Shown: positions 4,144 to 23,694 of the stretch, piece after piece | How the letters are laid out: each line of letters opens with the position of its first letter | Numbering within the stretch: position 1 is the stretch's first letter | Notes under the pieces: generated by a model | What the model was told of the DNA's origin: nothing | The model's input: the letters and a program-made list of their open reading frames with translations, nothing else | Databases searched by the model: none | Assembly (NCBI GenBank): GCA_016839605.1 | Contig: JAEOTX010000230.1 | Coordinates: forward strand, 1 to 23,695 | Origin: Candidatus Thorarchaeota archaeon | GTDB lineage: Archaea; Asgardarchaeota; Thorarchaeia; Thorarchaeales; Thorarchaeaceae | Direction: 5' to 3' | DNA length: 23,695 bases | Made by a program: the position numbers and the translations under genes

Positions 4144-4231
4144 TGGTGCGGGAGAGGGGACTTGAACCCCTGGACTCCTACGAGAGAGGATCTTAAGTCC
4201 TCCGCCTTTGACCGGTCTTGGCTACTCCCGC
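4144..4231 (-). tRNA. tRNA-Leu(TAA), CCA encoded
   Basis: GCGGGAG acceptor stem, GAGGA-CT-TAA-GA-TCCTC anticodon arm, long variable arm, GGTTCAAGTCC T-arm, ACCA end. Confidence 0.96.
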
Positions 4232-4346
4232 TTAAGACGGTCAGGCTATTTTTGACCCCTTCGATGGCTCGTAGGAACTCACCGCACGTTTTCTCTGGAA
4301 CAACAGCAGCTCTTCAACTCTTTGGTGACTTATCGTTCGAGAATTA

Positions 4347-4456
4347 TGGTGGGCCGGGCCGGATTTGAACCAGCGACCTTCGAATCTGAAGAGCACAAAG
4401 CTCAACCAGTTTCTCGGTGTAAGCGAGACATCATAGCCGGGCTAGACTACCGGCCC
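4347..4456 (-). tRNA. tRNA-Val(TAC) with a 32-nt intron at position 44/45 (4379-4410), CCA encoded
   Basis: GGGCCGG acceptor stem, TCTCG-CT-TAC-AC-CGAGA anticodon arm, GCTGG-TTCAAAT-CCGGC T-arm. Removing 4379-4410 restores an AGGTC variable loop. TTTTATT box about 28 nt upstream. Confidence 0.9.
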
Positions 4457-4496
4457 CTAGCGGTTTCGGGTGTTTCAATTGGAATAAAAGAATTGC

Positions 4497-8579: not shown

Positions 8580-8704
8580 ATTCTATGACCTCGGTCCCAC
8601 CTGCAAGTATTGTAATGCATGCAATAAAAGCAGGAGAAAGTAATGTCGTAGGATATGTCATCCTAGCATCAACATTTTATGGGAATGACCAAGGTAGATA
8701 GTTA

Positions 8705-10007: not shown

Positions 10008-10032
10008 ATGTAATACAGTTAATACCAGAGAT

Positions 10033-10665
10033 TCAACTCTCAGATTCCATCTGTTCTTTGAGGAACTTCAGTCTGAAGAAGTCTTCACGCTCTCTCTCTT
10101 CAAGGGCCTGTTTTACATATCGGGCAGTTGCATCCAATCTAGGAATTACAATTGTTTCAAGGGCTGAAACGCGTCTTTTAGTACGTTCAATTTCGATTGC
10201 CAGTCGTTTAACGGTTGAATCAATCTCGGCAAGACGTACTACAGCTTTCAGAGCTTCCTTAAACTTGGTTGACATCACATCAAGCTGGACGCTGGAATCT
10301 GGAAGTGAATATGGAAGCTGAGGGACATGTTGTTCTACTGATAGAACTGGAACTACCACACCCATCATGGACCTTGTGGATATTCTCAGATCCGCTTGGA
10401 CTTTACTTGCATTTGCGAACTCAACGACCTCAGCTGGACCCATGACCATCTTTGTTTTAGTTAGTGCAGAAAATGCTGAAGCTAGGGCCACATCAACCTC
10501 TTCCCTAGTCTTCTTAATCTCTTCAATTGAGTTGAAGAATTCCATAATTAGCGAGTCACGTTTCTCTTTGAGAAGATTATGACCTCGTTCTGCGAGTCTC
10601 ATCCTGTTCTTCAGTCGCAGGAGCTCCATTCGAGTCGTCTTGGTTCCAGGTAGAATTTTGCTCAT
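10033..10665 (-). CDS. atpD: A/V-type ATP synthase subunit D
   Basis: TRMELLRLK, GHNLLKEKRD, EIERTKRRVSALE and LEEREREDFFRLK motifs. Confidence 0.95.
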   Translation of the reverse strand: MSKILPGTKTTRMELLRLKNRMRLAERGHNLLKEKRDSLIMEFFNSIEEIKKTREEVDVALASAFSALTKTKMVMGPAEVVEFANASKVQADLRISTRSMMGVVVPVLSVEQHVPQLPYSLPDSSVQLDVMSTKFKEALKAVVRLAEIDSTVKRLAIEIERTKRRVSALETIVIPRLDATARYVKQALEEREREDFFRLKFLKEQMESES

Positions 10666-10742
10666 TGATCCTCACTTCGATGGATGAGATTGGTATAGTC
10701 AGTCGTGCAGATATTGTTGTCCTAAAACTGTTGTGATGCGCA

Positions 10743-11021
10743 TCATGCAAATGTAATGACTAATGCACTGACAAAAATGGCAAATGCACAGATAATGAGC
10801 CAGTCACGAATATACTTCTTCACCAAGCGGGGTCGGTCGTTGATTTGCCCGGTCGTGATAAGTGTCATAAATGAAATGAACAGGAATGCAAAGGGGAGAG
10901 CAACTGTTGGACTAGTTAGTTCTGCGTCTGTGATTAGAATTATTGCTGATAAGCCTCCGAAGATTAGGAAACTGAGTATCATCAGAGAGGTTAGTACATG
11001 CCGTATTCGATCGACATCCAT
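10743..11021 (-). CDS. Small membrane protein with about three transmembrane helices, function unknown
   Basis: Three hydrophobic segments; fills the gap between atpD and the ATPase gene. Confidence 0.7.
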   Translation of the reverse strand: MDVDRIRHVLTSLMILSFLIFGGLSAIILITDAELTSPTVALPFAFLFISFMTLITTGQINDRPRLVKKYIRDWLIICAFAIFVSALVITFA

Positions 11022-11135
11022 CTGGGAATTCTCCTATGTGAACGACCGGTCATGCCCGGACGTGCCTTCATGCCTATTCATCCTGTTCAAAAAGGTTGTG
11101 TCTTGAAAGTGCCAGACTGAGAGTTTACCACACGA

Positions 11136-11191
11136 TTTATTAGCGGCCAGTGCCCTGCCGGCATTGTATTACAAGAAGTACATGTGATACC
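11136..11191 (+). promoter_or_regulatory. TATA box (TTTATTA) followed by a triple 9-bp array, candidate operator of the ATPase-RHH operon
   Basis: TATA at 11136-11142; TGTATTACA-AGAAGTACA-TGTGATACC at 11165-11191 covers the expected transcription start; GAGGT ribosome-binding site at 11194-11198. Confidence 0.6.
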
Positions 11192-11204
11192 AAGAGGTCA
11201 CATC

Positions 11205-12179
11205 ATGACAATAGCGATACACGAAAGTGCGTTGATTCGCCACTTCAACACTCGCAAGGAAGTTTTGCGGGCCTGGGAGGAAAGAATCGGCGCCAGGTTC
11301 TCACCGTTTCGTGGGTATAAGATGCCGGACTCGCGTCTCTACGTTGAGCATCCGGACTTCTTAGACAGCATTGTCGATCTGATAATTACAAATGAGAGAC
11401 ACATCTTTCTCAGAGGACCGGTAGGTTCAGGGAAAAGTACTCTCATGTTGCTGGCACTCAGGGACCTGCCAACCCTAGCAGACCGACGAGGAAACAAATT
11501 CGTCACAGGCTATGTAGGGATGACCGGTCTTTATGAGAAACAGATGTCAGCAGCGATAGCAGACTCGTTGAGAGTAAAGTATCGCAGATCTTGGGAGTCA
11601 AGTCAGATCGTAGAATCAATTGCCCAAGAATGTGTGAGAAGATATAGGGAAGAGAAGAGCCGCACAGCCCTATTTGTGGAAGATGTTGCCGACAACCAAG
11701 AAGCGGCATTCCACAAGCTCAGATACCTTGCAGACCTGCCTACTCAGGAGATGAAAGCTGATCATCCAGAGGTGTTAGATGAGCCGATTATCACTTTGAT
11801 AATGTCGGGAACAGCTGTGTACTGGAACGCAATGCTAAGCTTCTTGCCGCAGATTGCGGATAGGACTGAGCCGCTTGATGTTCCTGCTCTAGACGATGAG
11901 AAAGCCAAGGAGTTCATTGGCAGAAGAATCGCCTATGCGAAAGGGCAGATTGACACCTTTGATTTGGATGATTACGGTGTCTACCCGTTCGCTGATGATG
12001 CTGTAGTAGTCATCAATACAGCGGCCAAGGGTAATCCACGTGACATTCGTATGTTGTCAAGAGGTTGTCAACAGGTGGCTGCAGAAAATTTCAGGCAGAA
12101 TGGCAATCCGGAAGTTAACAGAAAAATTGCAGAGCTTGTTTCGGATGCCTATGCTACAATACTGAGAGAGGTGCGTTAG
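11205..12179 (+). CDS. AAA+ ATPase, ExeA/GspA-TnsC-like (AAA_22-type), with no C-terminal winged helix
   Basis: PF...PD..LY N-terminal segment, Walker A GPVGSGKST, Walker B LFVED, Arg finger IADR, sensor II GNPRDI. ATG at 11205 chosen for its ribosome-binding site; the ORF track starts at GTG 11184. Confidence 0.85.
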   Translation: MTIAIHESALIRHFNTRKEVLRAWEERIGARFSPFRGYKMPDSRLYVEHPDFLDSIVDLIITNERHIFLRGPVGSGKSTLMLLALRDLPTLADRRGNKFVTGYVGMTGLYEKQMSAAIADSLRVKYRRSWESSQIVESIAQECVRRYREEKSRTALFVEDVADNQEAAFHKLRYLADLPTQEMKADHPEVLDEPIITLIMSGTAVYWNAMLSFLPQIADRTEPLDVPALDDEKAKEFIGRRIAYAKGQIDTFDLDDYGVYPFADDAVVVINTAAKGNPRDIRMLSRGCQQVAAENFRQNGNPEVNRKIAELVSDAYATILREVR

Positions 12180-12181
12180 GT

Positions 12182-12478
12182 TTGAGTGTTCTGAAAAAGT
12201 ATCGAGATGCTGGTGAAGAGGAAAGAGATTCAGCAAAGCCGGCTGCAGAGTCAGGGACTAGGGTTGCAGTAGAAAAACCAAAAGTTATGATTGCTGTGCC
12301 CAATAAAGAGCGAAAGAGTCCGATCGTGTCATTCTCGTTCACGACCGAACTTCGATCTTGTCTACAGAATGTGCGAAACGAAAAGGCAATCAATCTGAGT
12401 ATGTGGGTTGAGAGAAAGCTTCGAAAAGCGCTGACTGAGGAGTTCCCAGACATAGCCGACAAACATCTTGAAGTCTGA
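12182..12478 (+). CDS. Probable ribbon-helix-helix DNA-binding protein with a disordered N-terminal tail
   Basis: IVSFSF strand, TTELRSCLQNVRNEK helix and INLSMWVERKLRKAL helix. GAGGTG ribosome-binding site inside the ATPase 3' end; 2-nt gap to the ATPase gene. Confidence 0.75.
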   Translation: MSVLKKYRDAGEEERDSAKPAAESGTRVAVEKPKVMIAVPNKERKSPIVSFSFTTELRSCLQNVRNEKAINLSMWVERKLRKALTEEFPDIADKHLEV

Positions 12479-12496
12479 CCTATTCTCAGTGCATAA

Positions 12497-13891
12497 TTAG
12501 CTCTCTCTTGCACGCATCTCCGAGTATTCTGTAACTCGTGCCATGCATAGGGCAGCTAACGCCGGATTGTCGTAACAAGGAATACGATTCATCTCAAGTA
12601 GATCCTTTCCAGGTTTCCCTACATCACCTGCAAGCCACACTCCAACAACGGGCTTTTTGACATCTGCAGTCCGTATTCCTTCTAGGGTACCAGCTGCATG
12701 TTCAGTCTGTGTCATTCCAGCAAAAGTTGGTACTCCACATATCACTAATAGCATGTCGAGGTTAGGGTCTTTGAGCATCAGCTCAGTAGAAACTCGATAT
12801 TCTCCTCTCCCACCACTTGCAACAACATCTACAGGATTGTTGACTGATGCCATTGGAGATAGGACTTGACGTAATTCTTGACATGTCTTCTGCTCTAAGG
12901 CAGGGATATTGAGTCCGAGATCAGCTGATGCGTCGGTTGCAAGAACACCAGCTCCTCCTGTATTACTAATAATACCGATATTACGTCCTTTTGGTAGAGA
13001 TTGGTAATCAAACAACTTGGCTATTTCTAGAAGTGTGTCAAGAGAAGGAGCTGTCACACAGCCTGCCTGCCGAATCATTCCATCGAATATTGCCGTTGAG
13101 CCTGCCAATGATCCTGTGTGGGATTGGGTTGCTCGACTGCCAGCTTCACTCCTTCCACCCTTCAATACAACAACTGGTTTCTTCTTTGCAGCCCTAGTGA
13201 GAGACTCGAAGAAAGGTCGACCATCATCTACTCCCTCTATATAGACCATGATTACAGTGCTCTTTGGATCATCAGTGAAATAGTCAAGAATCTCCACGAA
13301 ACTGACATCAGCCGAGTTGCCAATACTAGCGAACTTGCTGAGACCAATACGTTTGGTGCGTGTGGTGTATATGAGCATACCACCAAGGGCTCCACTCTGG
13401 GAGATTAACGAGATATTGCCCCGTTCAGGCATCATAGTAAATGTGCCATTAAACAACCTACTGTTGGAAACACCCACACAATTAGGACCAATGATCCGAA
13501 CTCCTGCGTCTTGGGCAGCTCTGACTAGCTCTTCCTCAAGTTGTGCGCCCTGATGGCCTGTCTCACTGAAACCACCTGATATCACTACTGCAGCTTTGGC
13601 ACCAGCTCCTTGAATCTGACTCATTAGACCTGGACAATACTTTGCTGCAACGGCAACTATGACCAAGTCTACAGGCTCTGGAAGACTGTCAAGACTTGGG
13701 TATGCCTTGACCCCAAGGACCTGTTGCCTGCTACGAGTCACAGGATAGACATCAATCTCGGAAGTGATAAGGTTCATGAGAATAGAGTTACCCAACTTTC
13801 GATAATCAGATGATGCTCCGACTAGGGCAACACTTGAAGGATTGAAAAAGCAATCAATCTCATCGAATCCTTTGGATCCTAGATTGGTCAT
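12497..13891 (-). CDS. acdA: ADP-forming acyl/acetate-CoA synthetase, alpha subunit
   Basis: FNPSSVALVGAS, IGPNCVG, SQSGALG, SHTGSLAG (phospho-His), SNTGGAGV and NPVDV motifs. Start reassigned to ATG 13891. Confidence 0.92.
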   Translation of the reverse strand: MTNLGSKGFDEIDCFFNPSSVALVGASSDYRKLGNSILMNLITSEIDVYPVTRSRQQVLGVKAYPSLDSLPEPVDLVIVAVAAKYCPGLMSQIQGAGAKAAVVISGGFSETGHQGAQLEEELVRAAQDAGVRIIGPNCVGVSNSRLFNGTFTMMPERGNISLISQSGALGGMLIYTTRTKRIGLSKFASIGNSADVSFVEILDYFTDDPKSTVIMVYIEGVDDGRPFFESLTRAAKKKPVVVLKGGRSEAGSRATQSHTGSLAGSTAIFDGMIRQAGCVTAPSLDTLLEIAKLFDYQSLPKGRNIGIISNTGGAGVLATDASADLGLNIPALEQKTCQELRQVLSPMASVNNPVDVVASGGRGEYRVSTELMLKDPNLDMLLVICGVPTFAGMTQTEHAAGTLEGIRTADVKKPVVGVWLAGDVGKPGKDLLEMNRIPCYDNPALAALCMARVTEYSEMRARES

Positions 13892-13965
13892 GATTCTGAA
13901 CCAATTATGATTCGATTTATGTCTGCCGAGGGAAAGTCCGAGTTGTTGTATTACAAGTAATATTA

Positions 13966-15192
13966 TTACAAGGCTTCTCTCTTTAGAAAGTGCCTTAGGT
14001 GCCGGCGATTTTTGCATTCAGATTCCAAAGCCTCCTTAATCACAACCAGAGTTTCAGGGGATTTTTTCAGGATGTTGTCAAGAGCTTTCACTGAGGCTTT
14101 GATAATCCGTTCATCCATGGTCTTACAAACCAGGTCGACAATGGAATGGGCCGATGATTCGTGATAGAGATTTCCTAAGGCGATTATCGCCGGAGTAACA
14201 ATTCGTTGATCATCCACTCTAAGTAATTTCTCAAGGTGAGCAATTGAATTCAAATGACGAACTGCAACATGACCATTGATACATTGCAGCAGCTTTCGAT
14301 AGTCCTCACTTGATTTGGAAGTCATGTATTGAATGACAGCATCATCTAGTATTGCGTTCAGAGTAAATAGGGAATGCGTGCTGCCCTTGGATATGAGACC
14401 TTCAATGTCTTGACCTATGATGTGTTGGTGGAGTTCTTTGTACATCTGATTTGACGGGCTGACAATGGCTATCCCAGATACTTCTGCTGTTTCAGATGTT
14501 GTGATTCCTTGTTTCACTTCTGGTGATACTTGTATTACTGATAATACCATATCAAGTTGCTCTATTGATGCTTTAGTTCCTTTGATTCCAAGATCGGATA
14601 TAGCCAGGCGACCATATTCTGAATACCATAAATGTGTAAGATCCACATGTTCACCATCAAGTTTGAGAGTAAGATTGGCCATCTTTTCCGTCCGGATTGA
14701 TTCTAGTAGTCTACTGAGTTCATCGAACTTCTCATCCGGGGGGAAACTGAAGTATAGAGTGTCACCAGATTCTATTTGTTTCATTGCAGTTTCTTGTGCA
14801 TAGAGTATTAGTGACTGTGATGCATCGGCTAGAGAAGTCTTTGATTCTAGCATTTGAAGAAGGGTCATAGTATCTGTTTGCACTGGTTCAAGTCCACTGC
14901 AGGATAAAAGACTAAAGATCATTTCGCGGTACTTTAAGGGCTCAACTTGTGTCTGTTGTTTTCCGAAGCTGGCAGGAGTGGAATACATCTTGTCGGCTGC
15001 CGCAATGAGATATTCTAGTGCTGTATTCCATCCCTTGTTCTGTTCCACGGCTGCAACTAAGTCGAGCAGGTCTCGAGATCTTCTCTCACCTATGGCGTTA
15101 GTGATATCATGCAGAGTGTGTTCCATTTCTGCTTTTTCCGCACGTTCTCGACTTGCTCTTAGGAACCACTTGTCATCCCTGTCATCCGACAT
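13966..15192 (-). CDS. Hypothetical alpha-helical protein with C-terminal HEAT-like repeats
   Basis: Long ORF; IVTPAIIALGNL and IIKASVKALDNI resemble HEAT repeats; GGAG upstream of ATG 15192. Confidence 0.7.
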   Translation of the reverse strand: MSDDRDDKWFLRASRERAEKAEMEHTLHDITNAIGERRSRDLLDLVAAVEQNKGWNTALEYLIAAADKMYSTPASFGKQQTQVEPLKYREMIFSLLSCSGLEPVQTDTMTLLQMLESKTSLADASQSLILYAQETAMKQIESGDTLYFSFPPDEKFDELSRLLESIRTEKMANLTLKLDGEHVDLTHLWYSEYGRLAISDLGIKGTKASIEQLDMVLSVIQVSPEVKQGITTSETAEVSGIAIVSPSNQMYKELHQHIIGQDIEGLISKGSTHSLFTLNAILDDAVIQYMTSKSSEDYRKLLQCINGHVAVRHLNSIAHLEKLLRVDDQRIVTPAIIALGNLYHESSAHSIVDLVCKTMDERIIKASVKALDNILKKSPETLVVIKEALESECKNRRHLRHFLKREAL

Positions 15193-15384
15193 GCTCGGTT
15201 CGACTCCTGCAGTAATGCTGGAATCCTTGTTTCGAGTGATAAGACTTTGTCCAGCTGTTCTGTATTGTTTGTATCTTTTGTAATACAATGGAATAATGCC
15301 TGAGAAGACGCGTCTTTTTGGTGCCTGAAGGAGAAGATGAATCTGTTCTAAGATTAGAACTATGTATACTTGTGACCCTGTAAA

Positions 15385-15567
15385 GTATGAGTATGTCGTG
15401 TCAATGGCAGACTAGTGCTATGGGATTTCCATCCTTTGGCACCCTCAAACACCCGTCGTTGGCATCTCTATCTCCTCAAGTAAAGTACCTCCAAGAAGAT
15501 CCAATGCCGGCATGAGTTCGGTGCTAGGAAACCTGACTGACTTGCCGCAGATACGACATGCTCGTGC
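15385..15567 (+). ncRNA. Putative structured non-coding RNA of about 183 nt, family not recognised
   Basis: 18-bp terminal helix (15385-15402/15550-15567) and three further nested helices. All non-Watson-Crick pairs are G-U on the plus strand. TATA-like TATGTATA at 15361; T-rich tract at 15570-15579. Confidence 0.7.
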
Positions 15568-15577
15568 CGTTTCTTTT

Positions 15578-16171
15578 CTATGGTTCAGACTTACGCTTGG
15601 ACAGCTCAGACTTGAGTACTGTGGACGAAGTTAGTTCCTCTAGTGCCGAGAGGATGGTTCGCTCAGCTGAGCTATAGCTCTCGATTTCTTCGTCAGAGAG
15701 TTCTGTCTTCCCGGCCAATACATCACGTATTTTCCGATAGTCACCAATCCTTGTAGCTATCTCTTCAAACGGTCTAAAGAGTGTGAAGTCGAATAGACCA
15801 AGATAAGCAAGAAGCAGCATTGTGTATAGACAACGTGTTACATTTCTTCGGGCTTGTCCTAGAGTTCTATTGAACGCACCTCGTGAAACACCACTGGTTC
15901 TTCCCTTCCTTTTCGATCTGAAAGATGCCTTCCTATCATATGGTATGTGACTACCATGTTCATCTTCAACAACGAGGTCTATCAGAAGAGTTTCTAGCTG
16001 GACTTTCGTAAGCGTGGACTGATTGAGCAATGCCTTCATGATAGGTTCCTGCAAGACTCTTTGTGCCCCATCTGCAAGTTGTTTCACAGTATCACGACGT
16101 TTGGTTTTGGACCTTTTCTGACTCATTTGTGCTAGCCTCAAAATGGAGGAAATTGGAAAAGGAGGCTTCAT
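15578..16171 (-). CDS. Hypothetical protein, probable helix-turn-helix DNA-binding protein
   Basis: STLTKVQLETL...VSRGAFNRTLGQARRN has a sigma-region-4/Tfx-like HTH pattern. Alternative start at 16126. Confidence 0.75.
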   Translation of the reverse strand: MKPPFPISSILRLAQMSQKRSKTKRRDTVKQLADGAQRVLQEPIMKALLNQSTLTKVQLETLLIDLVVEDEHGSHIPYDRKASFRSKRKGRTSGVSRGAFNRTLGQARRNVTRCLYTMLLLAYLGLFDFTLFRPFEEIATRIGDYRKIRDVLAGKTELSDEEIESYSSAERTILSALEELTSSTVLKSELSKRKSEP

Positions 16172-16296
16172 AATGCTCCTTTCGTACCTCAGTTACGTAT
16201 GTCTGTATGGATACAATTTTGTATACAATGGAAGTCATAAACCTTCCCGGAGTAAGCTTGTGATACGCTTGTAATACAACAATTAATAGTTGAGAG

Positions 16297-16713
16297 CTAC
16301 CTGAATGGTAGTTTCCACTCTGATTCGGGGGGGGTTAGCACAAATCCAAGGATCAGATTGCCACGTATCTCATCAAACTTGAAAACGCCGAAGACATAAT
16401 TCGTATTGTTCATAGTCCACTCGACTCTACCCCGCGTGAGATAGTGTTGGAATATCGCACGGCATTGCTTACGTACTTGTGTGAATAGGTTCCGGTATCG
16501 CTTCCTTTGCGACGGCCGAATTCCCCATCTCTCAAGAATGAATCTATTGGCCAGACTGTTGCTCGAGAGCAAGGTGGATTTCTCTTTCTTCCTTAGCTTC
16601 TCTACGGTTTCCAGAAGAATACTCCTGAAGCAGTCCGGAATACTCGCTAGGATAGAAGGAGTAGTTTCTGGTTCGAACAGCAAAGGCCGGGAATTGTCAC
16701 CTGAAGCGCGCAC
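16297..16713 (-). CDS. Basic hypothetical protein, possible winged helix
   Basis: Three predicted helices followed by a beta-rich C-terminus; Arg/Lys rich; fills the intergenic gap. Confidence 0.65.
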   Translation of the reverse strand: MRASGDNSRPLLFEPETTPSILASIPDCFRSILLETVEKLRKKEKSTLLSSNSLANRFILERWGIRPSQRKRYRNLFTQVRKQCRAIFQHYLTRGRVEWTMNNTNYVFGVFKFDEIRGNLILGFVLTPPESEWKLPFR

Positions 16714-16844
16714 GTCAGTTCATGACTCTGTGGTCATTAGCGCCTTAAGAGGTCATATAATGAACTATCGCACTTTGCACATGCCACTTCATTGGATTAA
16801 TATCTACAACTGATACCGGTCCAACATAGTGGAGACAGATTCAC

Positions 16845-19178
16845 TTGAAGCAGAGAGCCGAAATCCATGTGACTGGTATTGTCCAGGGAGTTGGATTCAG
16901 GCCCTTTGTCTATCGAGTTGCCACTGACCACTCATTGGTAGGATTTGTGCTTAATCTAGGGGATGCTGGTGTTCAGATTGTTGTCGAAGGGAAGCGTAGT
17001 GAGATTGATGACTTCCTCAAACAACTGCATTCGAACCCTCCCTCCATTTCACGTATTGATTCGGTTGATATTGAATGGGGATCAGCAACAAACACCTTTG
17101 ATTCCTTTTCGATAAAGAAGTCTTCTACAAAGAGATCTACAGAGTCTGCCCCAGAGATGCCCCCTGATATTGCCATTTGTGAAGACTGTGTCGGAGAGCT
17201 GAGAAGTTCTGATTCACGATGGTATCAGTATCCGTTCACTTCATGCGCAGCATGCGGTCCAAGATACTCAACTATCACTAGTCTTCCCTACGACCGGCCA
17301 AACACTACGATGGTAGATTTTCCCCTATGTAATGTTTGTAATACAGGTTATACAAGTCCATTGGATCGAAGATATCATGCTCAGACAACAGCGTGTGATA
17401 GTTGTGGACCAAGATACCAGCTCTATGATGCAGACGGAAAACTGTTGAAGGGAATCAACTGTATCGATCAGGCAGCACGTCTGTTGGAGAGTAATTCTGT
17501 CCTCGCACTTCATGGCATAGGTGGAACGCATCTTGTGACAAAGACCTCAGACTATAAGCCGATTAGAGTTCTGAGGGAGAGAAAGAATAGGTTTCAACGG
17601 CCATTTGCCATCATGGCCAAAAATCCTGAGGTGTTATTTCAGTTCAGTGTACCCACAGAAAATGAACTACAGCTTATGAAAACTTGGCGAAGGCCTATCA
17701 TCTTAGTCAAGAAGCGTGATGGTTCAAGCCTACCTCAAGAATCACTTGAAGAGATTTCGCCCGGCTTAGATACATTGGGTGTCATGTTACCCTATGCTCC
17801 TCTTCATCATCTTCTGTTTGACAACCTTGATGAGGATGCCTTGGTAATGACAAGTGCGAATCCTACAGGTGTTCCGATGTACATAGACCCATCAGTGATA
17901 ACTTCTGAGTTGGGCGGGGTGGCAGACTATTTCTTGCTGCACAATCGACGAATCCATCAGAGAGCAGATGATTCAGTAATCAAATTCGTTGGCAGTGAAA
18001 ATCCGGTGTTCATTCGACGTGCCAGAGGTTATGTACCCGAACCTTTGGTAATGGACCACATTCATCCTTCAACAAAGGTTGTTGCAGTGGGACCTGAATT
18101 GAAATCTACTGGTGCGGTCCTTAAGTCCAAGAAAATATACATGACTCAGCATATCGGTGATACTGATCGAGTCGAGAACATTGACTTCCTCAGAAACAGC
18201 ATCAATCATCTGATGTTTCTGCTTGGTATCGATGGTGTCGATGGATACGCATGTGACTTGCATCCAGAATTCTTGAGTACAGACCTTGCGGAAAAGATTT
18301 CCTCCGAAATGGATGTGCCATTATATCGGGTACAGCACCATCATGCACATCTTGCAAGTATGCTTGTGGATCATAAAATGAATCTTGATACAAGTATTGT
18401 TTGTATTACAGCCGATGGTTATGGCTATGGTCCCAATGGAGAAGGATGGGGTGGTGACATACTTGTTGGAAACGGGACAGATTTCCTCAGAAGAGGTGGA
18501 CTGGCACCAAGCTTGTATCCTGGAGGCGATCTTTCTGCAAGATATGCAGCACGGTCTCTGATAGGTATCCTTGGAAATGCAGTTGAAACAGAAGATATCT
18601 TGACGGTGTTGTCAGGATCACGAATTGCCTCAGATATGGACCTCTCAGAAGAAACTCTTTCATTACTCTTGCGTGCAAGAAAACAGGACATCAATGTTCT
18701 TCGAAGCACTAGTGTAGGAAGATTCCTTGATGCAGCGGCAATCGCATTGCGAATCTGCTCTGAGAATTCCTATGACGGAGAGTGTCCTATGAAACTGGAA
18801 GCTCATGCATCTGATTCCGATCTTACTATTGAACCGGACTTTGTTTCAAATGGTGATGTGATAGAGCTGAACCCCGTAGACTCTCTCATTAAGATTCTGA
18901 ACCTTAAGAAAGAAGGAATTTCCATCCCCAAAATAGCATATGCCGTACAGCGGCATATTGGTCAAGCACTTGCGAATATGGCATGTGATATTGCTGAAGC
19001 TGAGGACATTGAGTATGTTGGATTTTCTGGAGGTGTGGCCTTGAATCGGATTATTACAGGAGCAATAGTTGATGTGGTTAACTCCAGAACAAAGAAATCT
19101 CTCATCCATGATAGGGTACCACCTGGAGATGGAGGTGTTTCAGCTGGACAGATAGCTGTTGCAGCTGCCAAATGCTAG
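16845..19178 (+). CDS. hypF: [NiFe]-hydrogenase maturation carbamoyltransferase
   Basis: GIVQGVGFRPFVY acylphosphatase domain, paired CxxC Zn fingers, DLHP, QHHHAH and PPGDGGVSAGQ motifs. Confidence 0.97.
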   Translation: MKQRAEIHVTGIVQGVGFRPFVYRVATDHSLVGFVLNLGDAGVQIVVEGKRSEIDDFLKQLHSNPPSISRIDSVDIEWGSATNTFDSFSIKKSSTKRSTESAPEMPPDIAICEDCVGELRSSDSRWYQYPFTSCAACGPRYSTITSLPYDRPNTTMVDFPLCNVCNTGYTSPLDRRYHAQTTACDSCGPRYQLYDADGKLLKGINCIDQAARLLESNSVLALHGIGGTHLVTKTSDYKPIRVLRERKNRFQRPFAIMAKNPEVLFQFSVPTENELQLMKTWRRPIILVKKRDGSSLPQESLEEISPGLDTLGVMLPYAPLHHLLFDNLDEDALVMTSANPTGVPMYIDPSVITSELGGVADYFLLHNRRIHQRADDSVIKFVGSENPVFIRRARGYVPEPLVMDHIHPSTKVVAVGPELKSTGAVLKSKKIYMTQHIGDTDRVENIDFLRNSINHLMFLLGIDGVDGYACDLHPEFLSTDLAEKISSEMDVPLYRVQHHHAHLASMLVDHKMNLDTSIVCITADGYGYGPNGEGWGGDILVGNGTDFLRRGGLAPSLYPGGDLSARYAARSLIGILGNAVETEDILTVLSGSRIASDMDLSEETLSLLLRARKQDINVLRSTSVGRFLDAAAIALRICSENSYDGECPMKLEAHASDSDLTIEPDFVSNGDVIELNPVDSLIKILNLKKEGISIPKIAYAVQRHIGQALANMACDIAEAEDIEYVGFSGGVALNRIITGAIVDVVNSRTKKSLIHDRVPPGDGGVSAGQIAVAAAKC

Positions 19179-19783
19179 AGTAGTGCTTCAACCGCTTTCA
19201 TTCCAAGTTCAAGAGCTTGTACATTAGTCCCTTCGAACTTCTTTGGGAATGTTGTCCGTACAATATCAATTGCTGTCTTCTTTTGAATGGGTGTAATTCC
19301 TGTCCCAAGAATTCCACCTAGCATTACCATATTCACTGACATAGAACTGCCAGCCTGTTGTGCCAAGGCCATGGCATCAATCTCAAGAATACGAGTGGTG
19401 AACTTCTTGAAACTACTGATGATTTCCTCATGACTTGGATACTCTGCTTTGCCCATTGATACTGCGACGGGATACTGAATGTGGGAACTTACTAATACGG
19501 ATCCATCTTCTGCGACGGTCTGAATCTCCCTTAGAGTTTCAACAGGTTCAAAGCCCACGAGTAAATCAGCAGTACCAGAATCAACTATTGGTCCTCTTGC
19601 TCCATCTCCAATTCGAACAGTACAGACAACATGACCTCCACGTTGAGCCATTCCATGAATCTCACCGACACGAACATTCAGTGAATCTGCGAGTGCCGCC
19701 TTTGCAAGAATCTCAGCAAGAGTAAGAACACCTTGACCTCCAACGCCAGTGATGGCAACATTGATTGTATTATTACCAGTCAT
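19175..19783 (-). CDS. iorB: Indolepyruvate:ferredoxin oxidoreductase subunit beta
   Basis: GVGGQG, EIHGMAQRGG and VNMVMLG motifs; follows iorA. Confidence 0.95.
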   Translation of the reverse strand: MTGNNTINVAITGVGGQGVLTLAEILAKAALADSLNVRVGEIHGMAQRGGHVVCTVRIGDGARGPIVDSGTADLLVGFEPVETLREIQTVAEDGSVLVSSHIQYPVAVSMGKAEYPSHEEIISSFKKFTTRILEIDAMALAQQAGSSMSVNMVMLGGILGTGITPIQKKTAIDIVRTTFPKKFEGTNVQALELGMKAVEALL

Positions 19784-19785
19784 CT

Positions 19786-21678
19786 CTATACCTCCTCTTG
19801 CTTAATTGCACCTTGAGGGCAGACAGAAACACAAGTACCGCACAGATTGCACAGTGTTTCATCTATCACCGCCTTTTCGGTTTCAGGATCCTGGTACATT
19901 GCCGGACAAGACAAACGGTTCAGACAACGCTTGCAAGCCGTACATGTTTCTTCATCAACATAATATTTGGAAGGATACTCGCCGCTTCTCTGACGTTCAG
20001 CTGCTGTAAGAAGAGCGCATGGTTCTATTGACACCATCACTGCTGGTGCTTGGTTTTCCCTAACCCATGTCACCATTTCCCTGACTTCTGCAACCATAGT
20101 CGCCATGGAATCGAATGGTTGGATAGTCTTAACATACTTCACACCAAGCCCCTTGCATACCTCTGCAATATCCAGAGGTGTAACCTGTTCTTGCATTCCC
20201 GTGACTCCTGTACCAGGATGTGGTTGGTGTCCTGTCATTGCCGTAGTTCGATTATCGAGAACTACTAAACTGATGGGGTGACTGTTGTATACTGCATTGG
20301 CAATACCGGGTAGTCCAGAAGCAAAGAAAGTACTGTCACCAATTGTAGCCACAACGTCTTGACCTGTCACACGGACAATTCCACAAGCTGTGGTGATTGA
20401 GGATCCCATATCAAAAAGGATGTCAGCAGTTTCAAGGGGCGGTGCTATACTGAGTGTGTAGCACCCGATATCTGAGGGATAGATTGCCTTTCCGCGTGTG
20501 GCGGTTCTGATAGCATAGTAAGTCGCTCTATGAGGACATCCCGCACAGAGAAGAGGAGGTCTTGGGGGCAAATCCGGAAGCTTTCCAGTCTTCTTGTCTA
20601 TCTTCTCCCAGTTAATACTTGTATTACGATTTATAATTCTAGAGAGTGCTGTGATAACAATTCGGGGACTGTACTCAAATGCCCTGGAAAAGTATCCTTG
20701 TTCTTTTCCAAGAATCTCTACAGATATCTTATTGACCTGAGCAATCCTTCTTGCATGAGTTTCTAGGAATGGTTCTAGCTCCTCAACAATCACAACTCTC
20801 TTGTGATGTTTGAGAAATTCCCCGATTTTCCCTTCAGGTACTGGATGAGTCATACCAAGTTTGAGAACTTCTGCTGAGAGTTCCATTGATTCGAGTGCTT
20901 CAAGGACGTAGTTGTATGATACCCCACTAGTGATTATTCCAAGGTCTCCTTCACCGTATGTGAAATTAAGTGAAGTTGTTTCAGAAACCTCCATTGCCTT
21001 CCTCATGGTTTCAAGAAGTATGGGATGACGTTTTCTAGCAACTGATGGTATTGGAACGAATCGAAATGGATCCTTTTCAAACTCGACTGTTGTAGGACGC
21101 TCCCTGATTTTTCCAAACTCTACAGGAGCTCTTGTATGATTGACACGTGTGGTTGTCCTAAGTAGTACTGGAAGTTCCAACTTCTCTGATATCTCATATG
21201 CCTCAATAAGCATCGATTTTGCCTCGGCAGGATCAGCTGGTTCAACCATTGGCATATTGCCCATTAGGGCATAGTATCTACTGTCATTCTCATTCTGAGA
21301 GCTCCACATACTAGGGTCGTCTGCTACCACGATGACCATACCGGCACGTACACCGATGTAAGTCAATGAAAAGAATGGATCAGCTGCGACATTGAGACCT
21401 GGCCCCTTGCATACCATCATTGATCGTACGCCTGCAACTGCGGCGGCACCAGCAACTTCCAAGGCGACCTTTTCGTTGGCACTGAACTCGAAGTAAAAGT
21501 TTGGTATGTTAGGTGCCATGAATGTGAGATTGTTACCAATTTCACTGCTTGGAGTACCAGGATAAAGCGCAACCAGTCGTACTCCAGCTTCAAGAACGCC
21601 TCGTGCTATTGCCTCGTTAGCAAGAAGAAGAGATTTCTTTCCCACTTTGTCTTCAAGAAGTTCTTTGGGTTTGGTCAA
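19786..21678 (-). CDS. iorA: Indolepyruvate:ferredoxin oxidoreductase subunit alpha
   Basis: YPGTPSSEI, NEKVALE, CAGCPHR, SDIGCY, GDSTF, DNRTTAMTGHQ and a C-terminal 2x[4Fe-4S] domain. Confidence 0.97.
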   Translation of the reverse strand: MTKPKELLEDKVGKKSLLLANEAIARGVLEAGVRLVALYPGTPSSEIGNNLTFMAPNIPNFYFEFSANEKVALEVAGAAAVAGVRSMMVCKGPGLNVAADPFFSLTYIGVRAGMVIVVADDPSMWSSQNENDSRYYALMGNMPMVEPADPAEAKSMLIEAYEISEKLELPVLLRTTTRVNHTRAPVEFGKIRERPTTVEFEKDPFRFVPIPSVARKRHPILLETMRKAMEVSETTSLNFTYGEGDLGIITSGVSYNYVLEALESMELSAEVLKLGMTHPVPEGKIGEFLKHHKRVVIVEELEPFLETHARRIAQVNKISVEILGKEQGYFSRAFEYSPRIVITALSRIINRNTSINWEKIDKKTGKLPDLPPRPPLLCAGCPHRATYYAIRTATRGKAIYPSDIGCYTLSIAPPLETADILFDMGSSITTACGIVRVTGQDVVATIGDSTFFASGLPGIANAVYNSHPISLVVLDNRTTAMTGHQPHPGTGVTGMQEQVTPLDIAEVCKGLGVKYVKTIQPFDSMATMVAEVREMVTWVRENQAPAVMVSIEPCALLTAAERQRSGEYPSKYYVDEETCTACKRCLNRLSCPAMYQDPETEKAVIDETLCNLCGTCVSVCPQGAIKQEEV

Positions 21679-21873
21679 CCACCTAGCCTCCGATCTCCCT
21701 AGCTGTAACTGGGATGAATCGTCCGGAGATGACTCAGTCTATCAACCTTGTGGTATTGGAAATTACAATCTTGTAGATTCTGTAATACATATAATACAAT
21801 AGATTGGATAGTTTTACTAGATTGGAACACGTGTTCTAACATATTGACGTACCCTATATCCAGGTATTATAGT

Positions 21874-22049
21874 CTGACACCCCTTCATTTCCAGTGGAGA
21901 TGATAAAATGGTGTGATCAGAGCGGTGAATGTATGATGATGATAAAATGGAGATAAATGCGAGCTCCATAAACGACTATTTATATATATCTATTTCGAAA
22001 AGTATCGAAACTTTCAAAAGTTTCTAATGGAAATCAAGGGGTGTGTCAG
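21874..22049. other. Archaeal origin of replication: two inverted ORB elements flanking an AT-rich unwinding element
   Basis: Minus-strand ORB TCTCCACTGGAAATGAAGGGGTGTCAG (21874-21900) and plus-strand ORB TTTCTAATGGAAATCAAGGGGTGTGTCAG (22021-22049) fit the TCCA-TGGAAA-G-string pattern. The 120-bp spacer contains TATTTATATATATCTATTT (21977-21995). Confidence 0.85.
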
Positions 22050-22073
22050 GTACTGGAACACGTGTTCCAAACA

Positions 22074-22361
22074 TCATACTTCTCTTACAACTTCAAAAAT
22101 TCTGGCCTTCAAGATGTCTGAATATGATGCAAACAGCGAATCAAAGAGAGATCTGTATTCACCAGGTACAAATATCGCAGAATCTGCCACTGCATATGCA
22201 CCTTCTGACGTATCAATGAGACCTGGTTTCCTTCGCTGCTTAATTCCAGTCTTTGTCTTCCAGGAATAGGCATATCCATACAGCTCCTTTGTGAATGAAA
22301 CACGTCGGGCATTGGTTTCACGTGCACGCCTACAATCATACAAATAGAGGAAAAATGCCAT
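22074..22361 (-). CDS. 95-aa protein, probable Cas2/VapD-like ferredoxin fold
   Basis: MAFFLYLYD (first strand ending in YD), RRVSFTKELYGY helix, DSAIFVP strand. Start reassigned to ATG 22361 because the longer ORF overlaps the next gene. Confidence 0.65.
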   Translation of the reverse strand: MAFFLYLYDCRRARETNARRVSFTKELYGYAYSWKTKTGIKQRRKPGLIDTSEGAYAVADSAIFVPGEYRSLFDSLFASYSDILKARIFEVVREV

Positions 22362-22485
22362 AGAAATTGGAACACATGTTCGTATTTTCAGGCTTAGTAA
22401 TACAAAATTGTTCCAATATGGAAAGGTTAATGCAATGGAAGTGTTCCACGCGAATTGCCTTTTGGAAGCAGGCAGGAGCTCCCAG

Positions 22486-23694
22486 ATGAACATTATCGGA
22501 CTTCGTAGCGAAGAAAAACCATTCGAGTCAAGAGTACCTATCGTTCCCAAGCATATCGCCGATCTTGCAAGTAAACACAATATTCGATTCGTTGTGGAAC
22601 CTAGTGATCAACGAGCTTTTACTGCTCACGATTTCACCGAAGTGGGTGCAGAGGTTCAGCCTCTGAAAGGAAGTGAAGTCCCTGTGGTTCTTGGAATCAA
22701 AGAAATGCCAAACAACTTCTTCGAAGGGGAGAAAGTGTACATTTTCTTCAGTCATACAATAAAGGGACAAGATGAAAACATGGACATGCTTCAACAGATC
22801 CTAGATGTTGGTGCGACTCTCATAGACTATGAACGTGTCATTGATGAGAAAGGTAGACGATTGATATTCTTTGGTAATTGGGCTGGAATGGCCGGAATAT
22901 CTGACACATTCAGAGTACTAGGTGAACGGCTGGAGTCCAAAGGAATCACACCTAATCCCTTTGCTGGATTAAAACCCAATTTGGAATGCAAGGGGCTCTC
23001 GGAGCTCAAAGAACAATTTCAAGCTCTTGGAGAAAGAATAGCAGGCATGGGCTTACCAGAAACTATGATTCCTTTTGTTGTTGGGTTTGCTGGATATGGA
23101 AATGTTTCGCGCGGCGCACAAGAGATGTTCGACATCTTACCTCACGAACAGGTGGAGCCGGATCAATTATCGAAAATATCCAGTCCGAAATCGAATGTCT
23201 TGTACAAATGTGTCTTCAAGGAGGAGCATATGGTCAAGCCAAAAGAACAAGGCGTTGAGTTTGATCTTCAAGACTACTACAAACATGGTGCCGCAAAGTA
23301 TCAGGGAGTCTTTCATGAGTATGTCCTCTATATGCCAGTCATTCTGAACTGTATCTATTGGACGGAAAAGTACCCCCGTCTCATAACAAGGGACTTTATC
23401 CGAAACCACTGGAAGGATAAGAATCGACGACTCGAGGTCGTTGGTGACATCTCTTGTGATGTTGATGGTGCCATTGAGTTCACAGTTAGAACAACCAATC
23501 CTGGAAGTCCTGCTTTTACTTACCTAGTGGATGAGAACAGAGCAGAACTTGGTGTGGAAGGAGAAGGTCCAGTTGTGATGGCTGTTGACAATCTTCCCGC
23601 CGAACTTCCACGAGAGTCATCAACTTCGTTCAGCGAAACCCTTTTGGACTACATACCCGCGCTGGCGAAGGCAGATTTCACGGTTTCCTTTGAG
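22486..23694 (+). CDS. Lysine-ketoglutarate reductase / saccharopine dehydrogenase (AASS LKR-like domain), runs off the window
   Basis: Not in the ORF track because it has no stop in the window. Manual translation gives MNIIGLRSEEKPFESRVPIVP...GIKEMP...FFSHTIKGQ...LIDYE...GYGNVSRGA...DISCD...MAVDNLPAELP. GGAG upstream. Confidence 0.9.
   Translation, partial: MNIIGLRSEEKPFESRVPIVPKHIADLASKHNIRFVVEPSDQRAFTAHDFTEVGAEVQPLKGSEVPVVLGIKEMPNNFFEGEKVYIFFSHTIKGQDENMDMLQQILDVGATLIDYERVIDEKGRRLIFFGNWAGMAGISDTFRVLGERLESKGITPNPFAGLKPNLECKGLSELKEQFQALGERIAGMGLPETMIPFVVGFAGYGNVSRGAQEMFDILPHEQVEPDQLSKISSPKSNVLYKCVFKEEHMVKPKEQGVEFDLQDYYKHGAAKYQGVFHEYVLYMPVILNCIYWTEKYPRLITRDFIRNHWKDKNRRLEVVGDISCDVDGAIEFTVRTTNPGSPAFTYLVDENRAELGVEGEGPVVMAVDNLPAELPRESSTSFSETLLDYIPALAKADFTVSFE

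Follow-up and report, generated by a model that had tools for sequence, protein, structure and literature searches.

The DNA analysed here is a 23,695-nt contig of a Candidatus Thorarchaeota archaeon, referred to as the window in its whole length (contig C182 of genome G000, a 3.08-Mb assembly of 80% completeness of which the contig makes up 0.77%). It carries a set of housekeeping genes, including gatE, gatD, PAN, NAC, atpD, acdA, hypF and iorAB among others, whose names were assigned partly by reading the sequences. It also carries a two-gene unit for an AAA+ ATPase of the initiator clade and a small protein with a ribbon-helix-helix (RHH)-like domain and, toward its right end, a predicted replication origin. 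The position of this origin was predicted from inverted origin recognition boxes (ORBs) that fit the general ORB consensus, and this applies to every origin-linked statement below. From just upstream of the ATPase/RHH pair to the ORB-flanked origin at ~21.9 kb, short phased palindromes form about one array per kb, and this field of sites is the subject of the present analysis.

Eight exact copies of TGTAWTACA near the origin, against about 0.3 expected, had been counted in the first-pass annotation. The same number was obtained here, with copies starting at 10009, 11165, 13947, 15279, 16270, 17337, 18402 and 21781, while shuffled sequences contained 0.14 on average and 2 at most. The tandem arrays listed in that annotation were found at the coordinates given there, and the exact copy at 16270 was absent from its list. 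The genome as a whole contains 18 copies (~14 expected from a Markov model), of which eight are on the window contig and the other ten are singletons; because this total is near expectation, the signal is one of clustering and not of over-representation. Among the 130,893 canonical 9-mers of G000 ranked by their best 12-kb cluster, TGTAWTACA and a shifted form of it occupied ranks 1 and 2, and 11 of the 13 best G000 hits of a matrix trained on other genera fell on the window contig. Phased pairs outside the field are at background level across G000, as are single cores of the sequence GTAWTAC elsewhere in it (142 versus 163 expected). The motif density is not uniform, and its local excess is unique in the genome. 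A genome-wide avoidance of the core, hinted at by a reversed-pattern control, was rejected on the same Markov comparison (rank 13 of 64). Other dispersed repeats clustered with ~1–2 kb spacing were observed on contigs C20 (3.1–14.8 kb), C84 (1.3–16 kb), C143 and C180 of G000, and these are probably repeat-domain genes or other site fields.

The field was present in all 15 Thorarchaeia genomes examined, in each of which up to 40 kb around the ATPase gene was analysed. Each genome has 12–26 GTAWTAC cores from −3 to +12 kb of the ATPase gene and few outside this range. Partner cores with two mismatches at most were found 242 times at an offset of 9 bp and 93 times at 18 bp, versus ~11 at other offsets. 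The proposed 9-bp period is confirmed by this sharp peak, while the conserved unit is not the 9-bp word originally named but the 7-bp core GTAWTAC in 9-bp phase, usually with two or three units per array. The arrays are on average 0.9 kb apart, with a spacing more even than random in 14 of the 15 genomes (p < 0.05). Exact copies are located at the locus in seven of eight cases in the single-contig genome G004, in 15 of 22 in G024 and G023, and in 13 of 22 in G022. The field is also one-sided; in ten ORB-matched genomes, 4–12 phased arrays lie within 8 kb to the left of the ORB and none to its right, except for two in G034, the sequence to the right in G000 extending over only 1.1 kb. The genomes are kin, so the pooled counts overstate significance, yet each genome passes singly and the sites turn over between genomes. 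A weak pair at 8611 in the original list corresponds to a site that is intact in relatives and decayed in the window. G021 and G019 show local inversions within the field or at its border, with site density unaffected.

In the coding sequences of the 15 genomes, 87 phased pairs were found versus 14.5 in a null model of synonymous shuffling, and every genome was above its null (p ≤ 0.005 each). The window alone has six such pairs (five in undoubted coding sequence) versus 0.66, a number reached in 0 of 200 shuffles. Of the eight exact copies, six lie between genes; the two in coding sequence, both in hypF, compare with 0.45 in the codon null (20 of 300 shuffles reach this number, which is not significant). 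The excess inside coding sequence is thus significant for phased pairs and not for exact copies taken alone. A single codon is kept in at least 90% of the genomes at only 2.8% of 1,884 conserved codon columns; those covered by the motif in hypF, acdA and the HEAT-like gene belong to this set, even in genomes of 52–53% GC. The synonymous-site check proposed in the first-pass annotation showed the intragenic motif codons to be fixed in orthologues, and the reading frame of the motif differs from gene to gene. At the HypF zinc finger the motif encodes CNTGY, versus CYKEY or CMEEY in outgroups, and the acdA site encodes SNT in Thorarchaeia versus TNA in the outgroup G037.

An artefact of coding or composition, arising from Tyr-Tyr, Val-Ile or Cys-Asn-Thr codons and from AT-rich spacers, is refuted for the field and retains a negligible probability. 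The pair at 1858, originally listed as a weak member, does behave in this way: it encodes YEYYN of gatE and is present in G004, where gatE lies ~0.8 Mb from the locus, and it is not evidence for the field since it accompanies gatE even far away. The flanking genes are likewise above the null (21 versus 3.7 phased pairs), partly from this gatE site, and exact 9-mers in coding sequence taken alone are not significant. However, the excess of phased pairs over the codon null in 15 of 15 genomes, the persistence of sites in GC-richer genomes and in several frames, and the changes of conserved amino acids relative to outgroups all contradict such an origin. The field is real, selected at the DNA level and lineage-wide. 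Table 1 lists its features in the window.

Table 1 Features of the phased repeat field, its gene pair and the predicted origin in the window.
Feature	Position	Strand	Basis or remark
Decayed site after PAN gene, left fringe	8611..8628		G004 and G023 have exact copies at ~−2.55 kb
2-unit array between convergent NAC and atpD	10009..10026		Equivalent site at ~−1.2 kb in G004, G011, G024 and G034
3-unit array immediately 5′ of ATPase start	11165..11191		Upstream core in Thorarchaeia and Gerdarchaeales loci
Initiator-clade AAA+ ATPase, 324 aa	11205..12179	+	Pfam AAA_22, structure matches
Tailed RHH protein, 98 aa, candidate array reader	12182..12478	+	Atlas, Pfam on orthologue, alignment
3-unit array within acdA	12959..12985		Core in 15/15 genomes; codons GGT, AGT and AAT fixed
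2-unit array between HEAT-like gene and acdA	13947..13964		Motif match
3-unit array within HEAT-like gene, different reading frame (VLSVIQ)	14522..14548		GTA valine codons fixed in both columns
Array upstream of HEAT-like gene, one exact and two degenerate units	15261..15287		Motif match
Helix-turn-helix (HTH)-like gene, 182 aa, conserved, travels with module and origin	15578..16126	−	Relatives in Bathyarchaeota
Exact single TGTAWTACA, intergenic, without 9-bp neighbour	16270..16278		Motif match
3-unit array in hypF zinc finger (CNVCNTGYT)	17328..17354		Outgroups CYKEY or CMEEY
3-unit array within hypF (DTSIVCIT)	18384..18410		Motif and codon comparison
2-unit array within iorA	20611..20628		In about half of relatives (turnover)
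Top-scoring array, ~80 bp left of first ORB, right field edge	21781..21798		Matrix score
Predicted origin, inverted ORB-like arms around AT-rich stretch	21877..22044	arms 21877–21898 −, 22023–22044 +	ORB match

The 169 phased arrays of the 15 genomes are distributed as 72 intragenic, 27 between convergent genes, 49 in tandem gaps and 21 in divergent gaps. Intergenic space is favoured and promoters are not required, so that the earlier statement that sites occur in unrelated genes and between convergent genes is upheld. This distribution bears on a local regulon, in which the RHH protein would be a repressor of its own operon and of genes nearby, with the intragenic sites acting as roadblocks or in looping. 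MetJ-type RHH repressors typically use phased tandem palindromes, a conserved array lies at the ATPase promoter, and 70 of the 169 arrays are in tandem or divergent gaps. The closest printed motif is the 9-bp palindromic box of aCcr1, an RHH transcriptional repressor, with essentially the same GTAWTAC-like core (PMC9976878, PMC9976892). However, aCcr1 is a cell-cycle repressor of hundreds of promoters genome-wide (307 promoter loci; PMC9976878) with no partner ATPase described, whereas the Thorarchaeia sites are confined, phased and often intragenic, and boxes at many promoters throughout the genome were not found. The arrays inside unrelated genes and reading frames or between convergent ends, their regular spacing and their termination at the origin speak against a regulon, which also leaves the tightly linked ATPase and the replacement by parAB described below unexplained. 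We consider this explanation improbable.

The ATPase of the pair matches Pfam AAA_22 (E = 2e-5) and has no hit to AAA_31/CbiA or Cdc6_C. Its Walker A motif is a classical GPVGSGKS and not the deviant KGGxGK of ParA-type proteins. The predicted structure, with a predicted local distance difference test (pLDDT) value of 90, matches ORC2 (Z = 19.2), MuB (Z = 17.6) and TnsC (Z = 17.2), and bacterial ExeA/MshM clusters with template modelling (TM) scores of 0.70–0.75; of the 52 rows in the fold alignment, one (P0257) is a spurious FtsE sequence, to which an FtsE hit in a PDB sequence search was traced and discarded, and the TM score of the model against its own atlas cluster is 0.96. This confident AAA+ model is not an actin or tubulin fold of the kind found in ParM or TubZ. 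The ATPase shares with Orc1/Cdc6, MuB, TnsC and ExeA/MshM the initiator-clade fold, the helical insertion between β2 and β3, the arginine finger and sensor II. It differs from them in its dedicated RHH partner, in the sequence ED in Walker B, in the apparent lack of transposase and secretion genes among its conserved neighbours, and in lacking the C-terminal winged helix that accompanies the AAA+ part in Orc1/Cdc6 initiators, as the whole 323-residue model covers that part only (for example, residues 7–305 of the 390 of 1w5s). Walker B (residues 154–163 of the window ATPase) has the residues ED in Thorarchaeia and in Gerdarchaeales; Jordarchaeia have DD and Odin has the canonical DE.

The fold matches to MuB and TnsC would also suit a domesticated mobile-element device, in which a targeting ATPase of this type and its adaptor would mark the origin region for integration, exclusion or protection. 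Homologues on plasmids, one of them beside an integrase, and a patchy distribution across Asgard families are in line with such an origin. Against this, the ATPase is a single-copy gene in 50 of 55 family genomes and is 75–98% identical across Thorarchaeia, and neither a transposase nor an integrase was recognised in its conserved neighbourhood, of which only some genes were run against profiles. The selection on housekeeping codons implies a benefit at the level of the host, and we regard the device as very improbable.

A small gene directly follows the ATPase gene in the loci examined. The 98-aa protein of the window carries the conserved peptide LxKYR at its N-terminus, followed by a variable linker and, at the C-terminus, an RHH-like domain. 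Its atlas match is ParG/Antitox_RHH (0.93–0.94), and many RHH proteins are among the low-Z hits (2.4–3.3) of its model, a weak fold call at a pLDDT of 62.6. Foldseek and PDB sequence searches with this protein gave no significant hit, and its Gerdarchaeales orthologue passes the Pfam RHH_1 cut-off (E = 6e-5). The Thorarchaeia RHH profile has no detectable match to the small proteins of Odin or Jordarchaeia, and the RHH status of the latter is therefore based on pattern and position. The RHH protein probably binds the arrays; its role as the reader, already suggested in the first-pass annotation, is supported by the RHH-like fold and by the co-variation of motif and RHH across lineages. The HTH-like protein encoded within the field was rejected as the reader, since it does not track the motif: its putative recognition helix is near-identical in lineages with other motifs and different in Gerdarchaeales, which have the same motif, making it an unlikely candidate. 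A complex prediction with two ATPase copies, ATP and RHH residues 1–36 gave a score of 0.00, which is evidence neither way. In cassettes from Haloarchaea (L116:3995–5251) and Odin (L051:18881–19234), the N-terminus of the small protein was observed to resemble the N-terminal helix of its own ATPase, and mimicry of this helix is possible judging from the sequences. At another locus (L074:1576–2472), a KaiC/RecA-like gene after a Bathyarchaeota-labelled ATPase homologue encodes three N-terminal copies of VLSKY(R/K)K resembling the RHH peptide, and an RHH-like gene lies upstream of this homologue.

Members of the ATPase family were also found in Odin, Jord/Freyarchaeia, Gerdarchaeales and two small families, where the ATPase gene is again followed by a small gene and, in most loci, has cdc6 within 3–10 kb. 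In Gerdarchaeales the ATPase is 42–44% identical, the RHH ribbon is similar, and the same 9-bp-phased core lies before, between and after both genes. The strict phased matches in three Gerdarchaeales genomes are all within 3 kb downstream of the ATPase start, and phased cores occupy the same places in six further loci. Jord/Freyarchaeia have the RHH ribbon NFNVR and, at the corresponding positions, GATATC in 13-bp phase; all 13 exact matches to GATATC-N7-GATATC in five genomes are at the gene pair, six of them in a closed 3.58-Mb genome. The genome closest to Thorarchaeia on the ATPase tree, G037, has a modestly altered ribbon and no GTAWTAC field, and 7 of its 13 copies of an AT-rich third word lie within 4.5 kb of the pair. 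It is the weakest case, as the pattern was derived from its own sites in an AT-rich genome.

Two further contexts point to partition, as judged from gene order and homology. In two closed genomes of family f13, which lack the module, the gene order is DP1, cdc6, ORBs, parA, parB, the HTH-like gene and the XRE-CBS gene, so that parA-parB occupies the slot held by the ATPase-RHH pair in Jordarchaeia. On haloarchaeal plasmids, a homologous ATPase (HH probability 99, E = 3.6e-18 over 283 columns) is followed by a 100-aa gene. In pNG100 of Haloarcula marismortui and a Natrinema plasmid, a private repeat is confined to the flanks of the two genes and the gap between them, and orc1 follows the cassette in pNG100 and in a Halomarina plasmid. 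A ParA-type Walker motif was not found on the two small haloarchaeal plasmids scanned. A plasmid search directly with the window ATPase found nothing, the link running via the Odin homologue and profile comparison. ParB_N had no match in G000 (80% complete) or G004 and none in the window, and it is sporadic among the family genomes (6 of 55). A complementary distribution of the module and ParB across Asgard was rejected as a general rule; it holds only in part and only f13 counts, families f9, f12 and f22 mostly having neither. In family f5, a conserved single ParB_N gene (~362 aa; L120:9866–10945) was present in 24 of 24 genomes, and neither parA nor cdc6 lies close to it at the two loci read.

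These contexts also have to be weighed against a role in origin control or architecture, where the RHH protein would coat the field and the Orc1-like ATPase without winged helix would act as a specificity adaptor for timing, licensing, sequestering or folding the neighbouring origin. ORC2/Cdc6 give the best structural matches, cdc6 and ORBs are found within a few kb of the pair in Odin, Jord/Freyarchaeia and G037, the field is one-sided and stops at the ORBs, and the plasmid homologues adjoin orc1. However, the genes that replace the pair in its slot are parA-parB and not a replication factor, Thorarchaeia retain two full cdc6 genes, and most sites are kilobases away from the ORBs. The Gerdarchaeales field, furthermore, is ~10 kb from cdc6, with no ORB detected beside it. 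We regard origin control as unlikely, with more weight than the regulon.

We moderately favour a centromere-like field that is read by the RHH protein and served by the initiator-clade AAA+ ATPase as its motor, with a role in segregation or positioning. In this view, the small RHH protein, whose gene lies within the field, would dock on the arrays. Going by RHH biology, one dimer may bind each 7-bp palindromic core and the 9-bp phase may allow two or three dimers to bind cooperatively. About a dozen pads, ~1 kb apart over 12–14 kb on one side of the predicted origin, would make up a centromere-like domain. The N-terminal RHH peptide may then recruit or activate the co-encoded ATPase, which would probably polymerise on DNA like MuB and TnsC and position or separate newly copied origin regions. 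The promoter array would additionally autoregulate the operon, and the array immediately 5′ of the ATPase start is likely also an operator. The structural, parS-like role preferred over a regulon in the first-pass annotation remains the best reading, given parA-parB in the same slot; the sites would not be parS in the strict sense, as G000 and G004 have no ParB and the ATPase is not ParA.

Among known systems, the module most plausibly works like SegAB or a type Ib cassette, by analogy, without being a member of either. Type Ib (ParF-ParG-parH, δ-ω) and type II (ParM-ParR-parC) cassettes consist of an NTPase gene, a small tailed RHH adaptor and phased short repeats. The Thorarchaeia module resembles them in its NTPase and small RHH protein, phased repeats on both sides and probable autoregulation, and the Gerdarchaeales and haloarchaeal plasmid versions have the compact layout; it differs in a motor that is neither ParA, actin nor tubulin and in repeats dispersed as pads of two or three units through chromosomal housekeeping genes. 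SegAB-segS of Sulfolobales (PMC8682754, PMC12284271, PMC12139799) is likewise a two-gene operon of an ATPase and a tailed RHH protein, the small gene directly following, with palindromes just 5′ of the ATPase gene and short repeated units at and around the operon. SegB sites cluster near the operon and are mostly intragenic (83.7%; PMC12284271). SegA, however, is a ParA-type ATPase with a deviant Walker motif, in contrast to the initiator-clade AAA+ protein here. The SegB motif is a different 13-bp palindrome (PMC12284271) with 39 peaks chromosome-wide, whereas the clustered word in Thorarchaeia is GTAWTAC, in a single 12–14 kb field of 9-bp-phased cores abutting the predicted origin, and the two RHH proteins have only the fold in common (Z = 2.7). 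Bacterial ParABS shares an origin-proximal, genome-unique palindrome cluster, often in genes, and parA-parB is at the same locus in a related Asgard lineage; its ParB is an HTH-CTPase clamp on a 16-bp palindrome, whereas the candidate reader here is RHH-like and its tandem core has 7 bp.

Several points weigh against a centromere-like function. Coding sequence makes up ~80% of the field, yet 57% of the arrays are intergenic, and the core is the same as the aCcr1 box, which is read by a promoter-binding repressor in Sulfolobales (PMC9976878, PMC9976892). The Orc1-like fold, as modelled, fits origin control equally, the ATPase belongs to none of the known partition motor families, and its non-canonical Walker B ED suggests that it may be a weak enzyme or a scaffold. 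G000 also encodes eight other RHH_1 proteins, ParA/MinD-like ATPases and SMC. Because there are only ~3 independent motif states, the co-variation is strong circumstantial evidence and not proof. No convincing phased motif or field was found in Odin or family f21 despite the presence of the gene pair in both, and searches of several large Asgard families did not recover the module.

Further observations concern the origin region and the rest of the window. ORB elements are ~10.5–11 kb from the ATPase gene in most relatives. A second palindrome with the core GAACACGTGTTC flanks the ORBs at 21822–21839, 22054–22070 and 22367–22384; most relatives also have it at the origin and Jord/Freyarchaeia near their origin genes, and G000 has a few further copies (contigs C104, C195 and C205). 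A small conserved open reading frame (ORF) beside the ORBs (22074–22580, minus strand) has no Pfam hit, and its true start is probably downstream of the longest-ORF start; members of its family lie beside the origin in Odin, Jordarchaeia and G037 as well. A third ORB lies ~4 kb past the ORB pair (near 48979 of C205 in G000; +15 kb in relatives), upstream of a winged-helix-like gene. The ancestral origin seems to have received an insertion of two amino-acid metabolism genes, and ~35 kb separate the ATPase gene from the nearest cdc6. Two tRNA-like genes were read by eye at 4146–4460 (minus strand), the second apparently with an intron.

A literature search, with most subscription papers outside its coverage, found no description of this module or of such a motor type. 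The system combines a defined cis site with candidates for its reader and its motor, and the three natural motif/RHH states make binding directly testable. The pNG100 cassette of Haloarcula marismortui, RR_RS00105–00110 with its flanking repeats, puts function within reach of a culturable host. In the genes that host the sites, selection at the DNA level rewrites amino acids in the HypF zinc finger and in an acyl-CoA synthetase. If the ATPase is a motor, a relative of the eukaryotic origin recognition complex would join the three known partition motors as an AAA+ class. Somewhat more tentatively, with a chance that we put a little short of even, the field may be a chromosomal centromere served by this fourth motor class, an AAA+ filament of the ORC/Cdc6/TnsC type, which would be old in Asgard (Thorarchaeia, Odin, Jord/Freyarchaeia and Gerdarchaeales), interchangeable with ParAB at the origin and also present on plasmids of culturable haloarchaea.

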